NCBI RefSeq assembly: GCF_056712565.1
Contig: NZ_CM160072.1
DNA length: 64,000 nucleotides
Reading direction: 5' to 3' (one strand)
A program made the translations under genes and the position numbers. Below the pieces are notes generated by a model. The model did not search any database. It was not told where the DNA came from and saw only the letters and a program-made list of their open reading frames with translations. Positions 2-57,838 of the stretch are shown here, in pieces (the first letter of the stretch is position 1; the number at the start of each line of letters is the position of its first letter).

Positions 2-382
2 GATACTGTGGTTGCCACCAGCGATAAAAAGCGTTTTAGTTATTCCAGTGATGGTAGGTGCATCCGCGCGGTTCAGGGGCATTCGACTTCGCAGGTCGCT
101 ATTTCCTTTGCCGAAAAAACACCGCCACAGTTTCTCTACCACGGTACGGCAAGCCGTTTCCTTGACGAGATAAAAAAACAGGGGCTGATTGCAGGTGAGC
201 GTCACTACGTACATCTCTCTGCTGATGAAGCAACGGCACGCAAAGTGGGAGCAAGACACGGATCGCCGGTTATTTTAACCGTCAAAGCACAGGAAATGGC
301 GAAACGAGGCCTCCCTTTCTGGCAAGCGGAAAACGGGGTCTGGCTGACATCAACGGTTGCGGTTGAGTTTCTTGAGTGGTAA
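2..382 (+). CDS. kptA: RNA 2-prime-phosphotransferase KptA, C-terminal part; the 5-prime end lies upstream of the window
   Basis: Frame of ORF 8..382 stays open to the window edge; translation matches the Tpt1/KptA C-terminal region as remembered from K-12; synteny with yjiJ downstream. Confidence 0.85.
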
Positions 383-55323: not shown

Positions 55324-55355
55324 TTGTGTTTTGCTGAAAGGCGATTGTCGTGTGA

Positions 55356-55388
55356 AGCCGGAGTGGGAGACTGCTCCGGCTTTTTATT
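55356..55388 (+). terminator. Rho-independent terminator of the deo operon
   Basis: AGCCGGAG / CTCCGGCT hairpin followed by TTTTTATTAT. Confidence 0.75.
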
Positions 55389-55489
55389 ATCTATTCATTT
55401 CTCTCTCCAGCTTGAATATTTTCGCTATACTTTTCAGTGAAATGTGTTAATAAATCTATTCAAGTATCTATTCACGAATCTATTCATTA

Positions 55490-56821
55490 ATGAGCGAATT
55501 GACCGATCTTTTATTGCAAGGGCCGCGTTCTGCCCCGGAATTGCGCCAGCGTCTGGCAATCAGTCAGGCGACGTTCTCACGCCTTGTTGCCAGAGAAGAT
55601 CGGGTGATTCGCTTTGGTAAAGCACGGGCAACGCGATATGCACTGCTGCGTCCTTATCGCGGAATTGAGCGTATTCCCGTATGGCGAGTGGATGATGCCG
55701 GAAAGGCGCATAAATTCGCCGACATCCGGTTGTGCTGGCCGCAGGGAAGTTGTCTGGTAACAGGCGCAGATGGCGACGAACGGTGGTTTGATGGTTTGCC
55801 CTGGTATTTGACCGATCTGCGACCGCAGGGGTTTTTGGGGCGCGCGTGGGGCAGGAAGTTAGCCGCGCAACTGAATCTTACTGAAGATATCCGTCTCTGG
55901 CAGGAAGAAGATGTGCTCTACGCCCTGACCGTATTTAGCGGTGAATACACCGGCGGCTGGCTGGTCGGGGAGGGGAATTATCAGCGATGGATTACTGCAC
56001 AACGCCCTGCGGCAATTCCTCTGGATCAAAAACTCACCCATTACGAACAACTGGCAAGCGATGCACTGGCAGGAGAAATTGTGGGTTCTTCTGCGGGCGG
56101 TGAGCAGCCAAAATTTACCTGCTATGCACAAACGCCGTCAGGCAATAAACATGTGCTGGTTAAATTCACCGTGCCACAGCAAACCGCGGTCAGCCAACGT
56201 TGGGGCGACTTGCTTATTGCGGAATCTATTGCCGCGCAAATCCTGCGCGACGGCGGGATCCACGCCATCGAGTCAACGGTGCTTGTAACAAGTAACAGGC
56301 AGGTATTCCTTGAAGCGGAACGATTTGACTGCAAAGGTAACGATGGTCGCTTGCCCATTGTGTCGCTGGAGGCGGTGCAGAGTGAGTTTATCTCTTCTCC
56401 GGGATCGTGGCCGGAGGCTATGCGCCGTTTGTGTGAGCAACAACTTGTCACTCACCAGAGCGTGGCGCAAACAGAAGTGATCTGGGCGTTTGGGCGACTT
56501 ATCGCCAACAGCGATATGCACGCAGGCAATTTATCATTTTATTTATCTGAACCACCATTTGCGCTGACGCCCGTCTACGACATGCTGCCGATGGCCTATG
56601 CACCAAACAGCGCCGGAATGTTGCGTGATGCTGCCATTGAGGTGAGGTTTGATCTTAACGTCAGTAAAAGTGCATGGTTAACGGCGATCCCGCTGGCGCA
56701 GCAGTTCTGGCAAACGGTCGCCGGAGATCCGCGTATCAGCGAGGCATTTCGCCACATTGCACAAGAAATGCCGGAAAAAATCCGGCAAATCGAAGGGAAA
56801 GTTGCCCGCATGGGCGGGTAA
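55490..56821 (+). CDS. yjjJ: HipA-family Ser/Thr kinase toxin homologue with fused N-terminal HTH-like segment
   Basis: 443-aa ORF; the N-terminal ~50 aa (LRQRLAISQATFSRLVA) look HTH-like, followed by HipA-like N and C regions; no hipB-like ORF adjacent. Confidence 0.85.
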   Translation: MSELTDLLLQGPRSAPELRQRLAISQATFSRLVAREDRVIRFGKARATRYALLRPYRGIERIPVWRVDDAGKAHKFADIRLCWPQGSCLVTGADGDERWFDGLPWYLTDLRPQGFLGRAWGRKLAAQLNLTEDIRLWQEEDVLYALTVFSGEYTGGWLVGEGNYQRWITAQRPAAIPLDQKLTHYEQLASDALAGEIVGSSAGGEQPKFTCYAQTPSGNKHVLVKFTVPQQTAVSQRWGDLLIAESIAAQILRDGGIHAIESTVLVTSNRQVFLEAERFDCKGNDGRLPIVSLEAVQSEFISSPGSWPEAMRRLCEQQLVTHQSVAQTEVIWAFGRLIANSDMHAGNLSFYLSEPPFALTPVYDMLPMAYAPNSAGMLRDAAIEVRFDLNVSKSAWLTAIPLAQQFWQTVAGDPRISEAFRHIAQEMPEKIRQIEGKVARMGG

Positions 56822-57838
56822 CTATCGCACCGCCCCCGCTATCCATGCCGACAACTCCCGTAGCTCTTTTTCCTGTTCCGGGAAGTCAACCAGCAGCGCT
56901 TCGCACTCCTGTTGCAGCATATCCGCGCGGTACAGACAGCCTTGCAGTCGCCCGGCGAGGGCTTCCAGCGGCGCGGGGTTGAGACTGTCGGTAAACACCT
57001 GGGCGCGGGTGATATGGCCTTTTTCAACGTCGAAATGCAGTTCCACGCCGCCCCAGGTAAAGCGTTCATCCAGCAGATGCGAGAATGCCGGAGCCTGACC
57101 GAAGTTCCATTCCCAGCTACTCTGGCGGGCAAAGGTTTCGGCGAAGTTTGGCAAGTCTGGCGTTTTGTCCGGGGAGATGATTTCCGCTTCCACGCGCTCG
57201 CCATAATGGGCGAAAAAGGCCTCGGTTATGGCCTCGCAAACCTGCTCATGGGTGATCCCCGGTAGCAATTCGGTCAGATTGGTCACGCGGGAACGCACTG
57301 AGGTAATGCCTTTCGCCGCCAGTTTCTTTTTATCCGGATTGAGATAGTTTGCCAGGCGGCTAAGGTCGGAATTGAGCAGCAAAGTGCCGTGGTGGAAGCC
57401 ACGATCTTTGGTTTCGCGATAGGCCGAGCCTGAGACTTTGCGATCGCCTTCGGCGGTTTTCACCACCAGATCGTTACGCCCGGAAGCTTCGGCGCTGACG
57501 CCGAGCGCGTTCAGCGCATTGAGCACAATCGACGTGGAGATAGTTTTATCGTACTCCGGCTTGCCAGCCATAAAGGTAAAACAGGTATTGCCGAGATCGT
57601 GGAACACTGCGCCGCCACCGCTACTGCGCCGCGCCAGGCGGACGTTATCTTCTTCCATCCGCCGGGTATTACACTCTTTCCACGGGTTCTGCGCGCGACC
57701 AATCACTACCGTGTCGGCATTGCGCCAGAGAAACAGAACGCGCTGCGTAGCCGGCATCTGGCGAAAAATACACTCCTCTACCGCCAGGTTAAACCACGGG
57801 TCGTAAGAGTCAGAGATGAGCAGGCGTAATGTGGACAT
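56822..57838 (-). CDS. lplA: Lipoate-protein ligase A
   Basis: 338-aa ORF; BPL/LPL catalytic-domain sequence; synteny. Confidence 0.95.

Follow-up and report, generated by a model that had tools for sequence, protein, structure and literature searches.

The closest described counterpart of the gene considered here is the gene itself as it occurs in Escherichia coli K-12. There, YjjJ was described as a monocistronic HipA homologue with an N-terminal helix-turn-helix (HTH) at residues 15-34, placed in clade X and renamed HipH, and its control was called unknown (Gerdes 2021, PMC8262856). Overexpression of YjjJ caused a dose-dependent loss of viability, with filamentation, DNA degradation and RecA induction, and left ampicillin and ciprofloxacin tolerance unaffected; HipB supplied in trans rescued the toxicity, the kinase was found to phosphorylate RpmE at S69, CsrA at S56/S59 and itself at S200, S201 and S217, and native yjjJ expression was found to be very low (Gratani 2022, PMC9948734, where Maeda 2017 is cited for the toxicity and the HipB rescue in trans). 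More recently, hipH was reported to be required for the persisters that depend on cyclic di-GMP (c-di-GMP) in biofilms, with c-di-GMP inducing the native hipH promoter and not a swapped one, toxicity that needs the HTH and not residues 340-372, and a protein that localises to the nucleoid; a fusion of HipH to green fluorescent protein (GFP) cleaved plasmid DNA, and c-di-GMP, which binds with a dissociation constant of 7.6 uM and blocks cleavage, was proposed as the antitoxin (Liao 2024, PMC11452175). The present analysis deals with the copy of this gene in a stretch of 64,000 nucleotides (contig NZ_CM160072.1 of assembly GCF_056712565.1), referred to here as the window. Its open reading frame (ORF) at 55490-56821 is hipH (yjjJ), a single gene for a HipA-superfamily Ser/Thr kinase with an N-terminal winged HTH (wHTH). 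The gene, its architecture and its interpretation are already known; what is added here is an array of repeats upstream of the gene and the co-variation of these repeats with the fused HTH, both of which bear on the control of HipH, the question left open in PMC8262856.

The features on which the argument is built, all on the plus strand of the window, are these:

55490..56821, plus strand: coding sequence of yjjJ/hipH, 443 amino acids plus stop, with an ATG start (ORF list, equivalog, annotation, alignment with K-12).
55454..55486, plus strand: proximal array of three ATCTATTCA units (55454-62, 55466-74, 55478-86) at a 12-bp period, a putative HipH operator (repeat count, conservation).
55389..55397, plus strand: distal repeat unit, an exact copy of ATCTATTCA, 65 bp upstream of the proximal array and just past the deoD terminator.
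55426..55453, plus strand: candidate core-promoter region (direct reading of the sequence).

The 9-mer ATCTATTCA occurs four times in the window, where 0.41 copies are expected, and all four copies lie no more than 100 bp upstream of yjjJ; within the same 64 kb the relaxed pattern ATTCA-N7-ATTCA is likewise found at the yjjJ repeats only. The proximal array ends 3 nt before the ATG of yjjJ, and direct reading of the sequence before this ATG showed no Shine-Dalgarno sequence. A strict sigma-70 scan upstream of yjjJ found no consensus promoter, and the promoter positions are therefore candidates only: TATACT at 55426-55431 is the -10 element implied by the computational transcription start site (TSS) at 55437, which is the one used by Reg-Seq, and TGtGTTAAT/TAATAA at 55443-55453 is a -10-like element that abuts unit 1. 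A different RpoD promoter, TTTTCA-18-TCTATT, with its -10 inside unit 1, was proposed by Shimada 2014, which also flagged H-NS in the spacer. The RNA of the leader and initiation region has a minimum free energy of -2.8 vs -9.6 kcal/mol and is less structured than 200 of 200 shuffles; the repeats were accordingly rejected as an RNA structure, the leader folding worse than all of these shuffles. No description of the repeats was found in the searchable open-access literature, although one may exist elsewhere, and a literal-sequence literature search for TCTATTCA and TGAATAGA returned unrelated primer-type matches only. The repeats may resemble the TorR 'tor boxes' (CTGTTCATAT direct repeats), on which the argument does not draw.

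The wider comparison covered about 84 HipH loci, one genome per species, 69 of them with a recognition helix of the form S-Q-(P/A)-T-x-x-S-R and 15 with another. K-12, E. albertii, Salmonella, Erwinia, Yersinia, Serratia, Cedecea and others have the repeat layout in common, and it is kept between these genera where the spacer is not alignable and the HipH proteins are 46-70% identical; Beta- and Deltaproteobacteria have it at hipH too, with genomic surroundings that are unrelated. At the 69 S-Q-helix loci, chains with a 12-bp period comprise three units in 48 cases, four in 5 and two in 11, and the spacings between sites are 12 bp in 123 instances and 65-66 bp, which corresponds to the distal copy, in 17. 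The distal copy was also seen in Salmonella, Erwinia and Rhodanobacter. At these loci the first in-frame start codon mostly follows the end of the final repeat core at a distance of 1-5 nt, and a TAnAAT hexamer directly adjoins unit 1 in many taxa. The consensus of the unit is T-A-T-C-T-A-T-T-C-A-n-n, in which positions 6-10 served as the anchor, the independent evidence coming from positions 2-5 only (0.7-1.0 bit each).

Some Enterobacterales (Erwinia persicina, Enterobacter sp. BIGb0383, Mangrovibacter and Rosenbergiella; loci L043, L077, L084 and L085) carry a second type of HipH that is 36-38% identical to that of E. coli, has an S-Q-P-T helix and TATTCA repeats, and groups with betaproteobacterial sequences. 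This lineage was probably gained by horizontal transfer and is separate from the gene that stands in synteny next to deoD.

The repeats do not merely accompany the gene; their core changes with the recognition helix of the protein. Two or more ATTCA cores in the 110 nt upstream of hipH were found at 64 of the 69 S-Q loci, at none of the 15 others and in 0.2% of 1418 control windows drawn from the same contigs (Fisher 1e-12, not corrected for phylogeny). Each of the 15 has a repeat of its own in the same layout, and the pairings of helix and core are as follows:

Helix S-R-A-T or D-R-A-T: repeat core CGTT(T/G)CA.
Helix T-R-P-T: repeat core CGTTACA.
Helix S-V-P-T-x-H-R (V26/H30): repeat core CTTCTCA or CATTTCA.
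Helix D-R-S-T (Alishewanella): repeat core (C/T)GATGCA.
Helix S-P-A-T: repeat core (T/C)GTTTCA.
Helix S-Q-T-A: repeat core CTACCCA.

Units of the sequence ATCGTTTCA are present at loci L048, L073 and L079, and the generalised unit is ATC-NNN-(T/G/A)CA, with a variable middle triplet. In a neighbour-joining tree of the kinase body only, which carries no support values, Arg26 together with the CGTT core falls in at least two separate clades, one of which is nested among betaproteobacteria with the S-Q helix and TATTCA. Over the first 74 residues of HipH, the information on the repeat class, taken without phylogenetic correction, is highest at positions 26 and 30 (0.83 and 0.71 of 1.01 bits; z = 20 and 11), the next-best position having an excess of 0.32 bits. 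Residue 26 is the first of the predicted recognition helix and residue 30 lies one turn later. That Arg should take the place of Gln where the triplet comes to contain a G is in keeping with direct base readout, which predicts such a pairing. At the Alishewanella aestuarii locus (L029), in a region reaching about 40 nt to either side of the hipH start, the upstream repeat is TAT(C/T)GATGCA and two more copies (GTTATTGATGCAATTATTGATTTT) stand within the first hipH codons, where the array, judged by its sequence, appears to extend into the coding region.

The domain to which these residues belong was delimited on structure predictions:

55490..55654, plus strand: N-terminal wHTH, residues 1-55 (AlphaFold2 secondary structure, Foldseek, conservation).
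55565..55594, plus strand: recognition helix, residues 26-35 (AlphaFold2 model).

In the model, residues 1-53 form helices at 3-8, 15-22 and 26-35 and strands at 39-42 and 49-53, the wing being residues 39-53, with a predicted local distance difference test score (pLDDT) of 88-94; folded alone, the domain takes the same topology (pLDDT 85.7). This lone-domain model matched SqrR, HlyU, CzrA and BigR in Foldseek with template-modelling (TM) scores of 0.78-0.80 and root-mean-square deviations of 1.5-1.6 A at 20-31% identity over 55 residues, with E-values of only about 0.01 because the domain is short. Among sequences with an overall identity of 32-40%, conservation reaches 90% or more at S25, Q26, S30, R31, G43 and Y50. 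Since the Pfam and NCBIfam matches to HTH families are below threshold (MarR_2, E 0.024-0.086; HTH_20, E 0.22, 12 bits vs a cut-off of 27), the HTH call rests on structure prediction. An HTH-like N-terminal extension had been seen in the initial annotation, and the peptide quoted there, LRQRLAISQATFSRLVA, is residues 18-34 of HipH, running from the last part of helix 2 through the turn and along the recognition helix. That call holds and can be refined: as modelled, the N-terminal HTH is a winged helix of ArsR/SmtB-like fold and not of the Xre/HipB type.

It is proposed that HipH binds the upstream repeats through its own wHTH and thereby represses its own promoter, a reading to which we give roughly two chances in three. 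The wHTH would recognise the direct repeats by the unit ATC-TAT-TCA, of which three follow the -10 region at a 12-bp period and precede the ATG, a fourth lying 65 bp upstream; once bound, it would hold down the transcription of hipH, so that the kinase would be both scarce and tethered to DNA. The unstructured leader, with no Shine-Dalgarno sequence, and the weak core-promoter elements would lower hipH expression further, and the fused HTH would take over the autoregulatory role that HipB holds in hipBA. More speculatively, c-di-GMP might release the HipH autorepressor from the DNA and so induce the promoter, and such a release by ligand might also explain the protection by c-di-GMP against toxicity directed at DNA. 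Autorepression would explain why c-di-GMP both binds HipH and induces its promoter, and it offers an account of the HTH being essential for toxicity.

It would also account for a repressor site in the leader that was left without an assigned factor. By Reg-Seq, two repressor sites were found at yjjJ, one at -24..+18, given to MarA, and one at +30..+45, to which no factor was assigned (Ireland 2020, PMC7567609). These positions are relative to MG1655 coordinate 4,621,716, the hipH ATG being at 4,621,769, and in the same numbering the repeat units fall at +17..25, +29..37 and +41..49. The site at +30..+45 thus translates to 55467-55482 of the window and extends over unit 2 into the middle of unit 3, where the mutagenised window ends. 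This repressor site on units 2 and 3 agrees with the operator reading, as do the results of Liao 2024 on the HTH, the nucleoid and c-di-GMP. The 42-bp footprint assigned to MarA corresponds to 55413-55455 of the window and holds all the candidate -35 and -10 elements of the weak promoter. The assignment was made by comparison of growth conditions and motifs (PMC7567609), and it may deserve re-examination, because mutations in a weak promoter can raise expression by improving its -35 or -10 elements.

Several observations weigh against autorepression by HipH. Reg-Seq gave the adjacent -24..+18 site to MarA and flagged neither unit 1 nor the distal copy (PMC7567609); the TSS of yjjJ is placed by computation and by candidate elements only; and the Fisher and mutual-information statistics lack a phylogenetic correction, as the tree lacks support values. 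Chromatin immunoprecipitation with exonuclease treatment (ChIP-exo) of myc-tagged YjjJ at native level gave no peaks, which was explained by a protein without an HTH (Gao 2021). The predicted wHTH structure contradicts that reason, and the negative result itself stands; it could be due to a very low level of the protein or to the myc tag. Finally, the repeats are fully kept in the 75% of E. coli that have no yjjJ, and can thus persist without the protein.

This last point comes from a dimorphism of the gap between deoD and lplA in 5426 complete E. coli genomes. The gene yjjJ is present in 1345 of them (25%), including K-12 and the window, and 4063 (75%), among them O157:H7, IAI39 and CE10, have in its place a gene for an 87-aa Xre-type HTH protein and no remnant of yjjJ. 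Comparison of the two alleles (55398-56821 of the window with 1525-1980 of L001 and 2525-2980 of L002) showed that the 87-aa HTH gene lies 31 nt past lplA and runs on the opposite strand, its stop codon falling inside repeat unit 3. Both alleles have kept all four repeats, and the 55 bp that separate the distal one from the proximal three are allele-specific. The syntenic position of yjjJ in E. albertii, Salmonella and Erwinia indicates that the gap originally held this gene, and the repeats in yjjJ-less E. coli are most simply accounted for by a recent replacement. For the product of the 87-aa HTH gene no more than a 37% match, to a Pasteurella phage regulator, was found, and on plasmids no genuine match to the gene was found, the records listed being of chromosome size. 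Truncated E. coli YjjJ proteins of 223-328 aa and 96-98% identity form sizeable clusters with 30-88 members (P0010, P0069, P0070, P0100 and P0122), which suggests recurrent pseudogenisation in some lineages and fits a dispensable gene.

The proposal of autorepression can be carried a step further, to a version that seems to us more doubtful than probable, in which its own operator DNA would be the 'missing antitoxin' of HipH. A few molecules would sit head-to-tail on the three repeats over the TSS and on the fourth site, with the kinase inactive and tethered; a ligand such as c-di-GMP would derepress hipH and free active kinase; and the code (at residue 26, Gln for TAT and Arg for GTT, together with residue 30) would have co-evolved across the proteobacteria. 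The initial annotation had held that the neutralisation of this kinase was not obvious from the locus. This is right as far as an antitoxin gene is concerned, there being none, and less so in view of the conserved direct-repeat array between promoter and ATG, which hints at control.

The surroundings of the gene bear on the first of the alternatives. Upstream of yjjJ on the plus strand lie deoA, deoB and deoD, and downstream lie the convergent lplA (56822-57838) and then ytjB, serB and radA; the stop codon of yjjJ (56819-56821) abuts that of lplA (56822-56824). Two further features belong here:

55354..55383, plus strand: strong intrinsic terminator of deoD, a 13-bp stem with 7 GC pairs followed by a T-run, kept in both E. 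coli alleles.
56769..56787, minus strand: terminator-like hairpin for lplA, TGCCGGATTTTTTCCGGCA with a T-rich tail, inside the 3' end of the yjjJ coding sequence.

The deoD terminator separates the transcription of yjjJ from that of the deo operon. The lplA hairpin stands 35 nt beyond the lplA stop, within the final 50 nt of the yjjJ coding sequence, and since the two stop codons also abut, transcription of yjjJ and lplA should collide. No small HTH gene was found among the ORFs flanking yjjJ in the window, no co-transcribed upstream hipB with an Xre-type HTH antitoxin is present at the locus, and two short ORFs that overlap the 5' end of yjjJ had no Pfam match. With a terminator upstream, a convergent gene downstream and overlapping small ORFs free of domains, the gene is monocistronic. 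The ORF protein matched the NCBIfam equivalog 'HipA family toxin YjjJ' (NF007297) over its full length with 676.8 bits (cut-off 401), and its DNA has 100% matches in several E. coli chromosomes, which bear the annotation yjjJ for the gene; the current RefSeq record of MG1655 names it hipH. The K-12 protein is identical at 431 of 443 residues (97%), and all 12 substitutions leave the HTH and the kinase motifs untouched. The frame of 443 aa, its naming as yjjJ and its single-gene arrangement with no hipB next to it, all of which the initial annotation had put forward, are thereby confirmed.

The same single-gene setting recurs elsewhere. Downstream of deoD, hipH stands alone in Salmonella, in a relative with 70% identity and in Erwinia; a same-strand ORF starts no more than 60 nt past the hipH stop at 6 of 83 loci (one genome per species), and in these 83 loci no gene family recurs as a partner beyond the enterobacterial synteny of deoD, lplA and ytjB. 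A cluster of LysR-type regulators that came up as a partner in the same set was judged to consist of cross-hits within a huge family. The HipH family comprises 1819 representatives at 50% clustering, and since the alignments of most of them span residues 5 to 430 or so, most include the HTH. In the relative with 70% identity (L005), a 163-aa ORF at 2332-2823 is inserted between deoD and hipH; a longer frame of it resembles an IS200/REP-associated tyrosine transposase, and the hipH repeats and the distal copy are intact downstream.

On the view that HipH is an orphan type II toxin neutralised in trans by HipB from hipBA, the fused HTH would be incidental. Rescue of YjjJ toxicity by overexpressed HipB speaks for this (PMC9948734, with Maeda 2017 as cited there), and so does the activation of HipA by kinase-dead YjjJ, which is consistent with competition for HipB (PMC9948734). 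The rescue experiments, however, relied on overexpression, and HipB did not inhibit the HipH activity that was assayed in vitro (PMC11452175). Moreover, hipH is vertically inherited at deoD-lplA from Escherichia to Erwinia and stands alone, with no conserved neighbour, in about 80 genomes, and both the wHTH and the repeats that belong to it are strongly constrained and co-vary. An antitoxin role of HipB is unlikely to be the explanation of this locus.

A second alternative follows from PMC11452175, namely that HipH is primarily a chromosome-breaking DNase with c-di-GMP as its small-molecule antitoxin and with a kinase fold that is dispensable for toxicity. Here the architecture of the rest of the protein has to be considered:

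56087..56773, plus strand: HipA_C kinase core, residues 200-428 (Pfam, conservation, PDB profile matches, fold match).
55670..55789, plus strand: beta-sheet N-subdomain, residues 61-100, in the region linking HTH and kinase (predicted model).

Pfam HipA_C matched residues 200-428 with E 1.5e-20 and 74.2 bits (cut-off 30.5). The kinase motifs comprise the Gly-rich loop GSSAGGEQPKF at 199-209, K225, IANSDMHAGN at 338-347 with D342, H344 and N347, and the Mg-binding D364; in two alignments, one of 48 enterobacterial homologs and one of 45 sequences down to 32-40% identity, G199-S-S-A-G-G-E205, K225, D342-x-H344-x-x-N347 and D364 are invariant or at least 90% conserved. A single-sequence phmmer search of the PDB with HipH found nothing, and the family profile matched solved chains of HipT and HipA over the core only (residues 201-373), HipT best with E 8.5e-8. 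The AlphaFold model of full-length HipH built on the alignment has a pLDDT of 89.8 and a predicted TM score (pTM) of 0.88, and its top 18 Foldseek matches are all HipA structures (E 5e-11 to 4e-8, TM 0.45-0.59). The nearest folds are HipA of Shewanella and of E. coli, with E 5e-11 to 1e-8, TM about 0.55 over the full length and 12-15% sequence identity in the structural alignment, followed by HipT and CtkA. The N-subdomain is predicted to have four strands (61-67, 73-82, 87-92 and 97-100). Pfam gave no match on residues 61-200, and hence no HipA N-terminal domain, and the alignment of the model with the HipA fold spans the full length; residues 61-100 may be equivalent to the HipA N-subdomain, or HipS. 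The HipA-like kinase body of the initial annotation is borne out by the Pfam score above gathering threshold, the intact motifs and the fold of the model; of the domains that it had expected a search to detect, HipA_C was found, the HipA N-terminal domain was not detected by Pfam, and the HTH appeared only below profile threshold.

The case for a DNase lies in the experiments of PMC11452175, in which HipH lacking residues 340-372 was still toxic and HipH lacking the HTH was not, the protein localised to the nucleoid, purified HipH-GFP cut plasmid under inhibition by c-di-GMP, and the SOS response was induced and Gam-GFP foci appeared; PMC9948734 likewise describes DNA degradation and RecA induction. 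Against it, the high-confidence model has no parts other than the wHTH, the beta subdomain and the HipA-type kinase, and its significant structural neighbours are all kinases, with no nuclease-like fold among them. The residues that are invariant in the family are those for kinase catalysis and Mg binding, from which it follows that selection maintains phosphotransfer, and substrates of the kinase were mapped in vivo and in vitro (PMC9948734). Cleavage was inhibited only at millimolar c-di-GMP, and a co-purifying nuclease was not excluded in the available part of that report (PMC11452175), whose findings on c-di-GMP fit the release of a DNA-bound autorepressor equally well. We regard a primary DNase function as rather improbable. 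The same two studies divide on the label 'persistence-type' that the initial annotation had used, which is contested: YjjJ overexpression brought no tolerance in PMC9948734, and a role in persisters specific to biofilms was reported in PMC11452175. The experiments suggested with that annotation, on overexpression toxicity, HipB rescue in trans and phosphoproteomic targets, were already in print (PMC9948734, citing Maeda 2017), and so was the domain analysis of YjjJ (PMC8262856).

No more credit is due to a third possibility, that the repeats are bound by another factor (MarA, H-NS or some other regulator) or act as RNA, and that the HTH of HipH has other targets or none. The neighbouring site given to MarA (PMC7567609), H-NS in the spacer according to Shimada 2014, the ChIP-exo experiment without YjjJ peaks (Gao 2021) and the persistence of the repeats in yjjJ-less E. 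coli are all in its favour. Yet the repeats accompany hipH into unrelated contexts in three classes of proteobacteria, their core changes with residues 26 and 30 of HipH, independently at least twice, and the leader RNA is unstructured. The idea that the N-terminal HTH, instead of binding DNA as an autoregulator, masks the kinase as an antitoxin in cis, on the model of EzeT, was raised as a possibility in PMC8262856 and would suit the defined arrangement of domains implied by a pTM of 0.88, but it is very improbable, as it predicts more toxicity on removal of the HTH where toxicity was abolished (PMC11452175) and as the residues that are conserved belong to the recognition helix and the wing, and track the DNA motif. 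All of these alternatives are less consistent with the conservation and co-variation data than autorepression by HipH.

Set beside the known systems, the window has the same gene as K-12 (b4385, clade X), in the same position between deoD and lplA and with an identical upstream repeat region, the same motifs and the same phosphosites; it differs from K-12 in that its allele matches genomes of the B2/ExPEC type (ExPEC, extraintestinal pathogenic E. coli) at 100%. With HipBA of E. coli K-12 and Shewanella, HipH shares the HipA-type fold and catalytic motifs, and a link between an HTH and promoter DNA is expected in both; unlike HipBA, HipH has no hipB gene, and its HTH is part of the kinase polypeptide and of the winged-helix, not the Xre, type. 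The operators bound by HipB dimers are palindromes; those proposed for HipH consist of direct repeats with a 12-bp period. The targets differ too, RpmE and CsrA for HipH and GltX for HipA (PMC9948734). As regards HipBST of E. coli O127 and Legionella, the two serines in the Gly-rich loop of HipH parallel the autophosphorylation of HipT (PMC8262856), but what HipBST divides over three separate genes, HipH unites as HTH, beta subdomain and kinase in one polypeptide. The ArsR/SmtB repressors SqrR, HlyU, CzrA and BigR share with residues 1-55 of HipH a winged-helix core of three helices and a two-strand wing, and the structures matched have 92-101 residues where the HipH domain has about 55; going by this length, the HipH wHTH would lack the flanking dimerisation helices and the sensor sites. 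It resembles the ArsR/SmtB family and is not a member, as it has no sequence match at family level and does not have the dimeric architecture of about 100 residues. ArsR/SmtB repressors bind inverted repeats as dimers. EzeT, cited in PMC8262856, has like HipH a one-gene toxin-antitoxin arrangement with an N-terminal regulatory domain; in HipH, however, that domain has a DNA-binding fold, and its deletion abolishes the toxicity and does not unleash it (PMC11452175).

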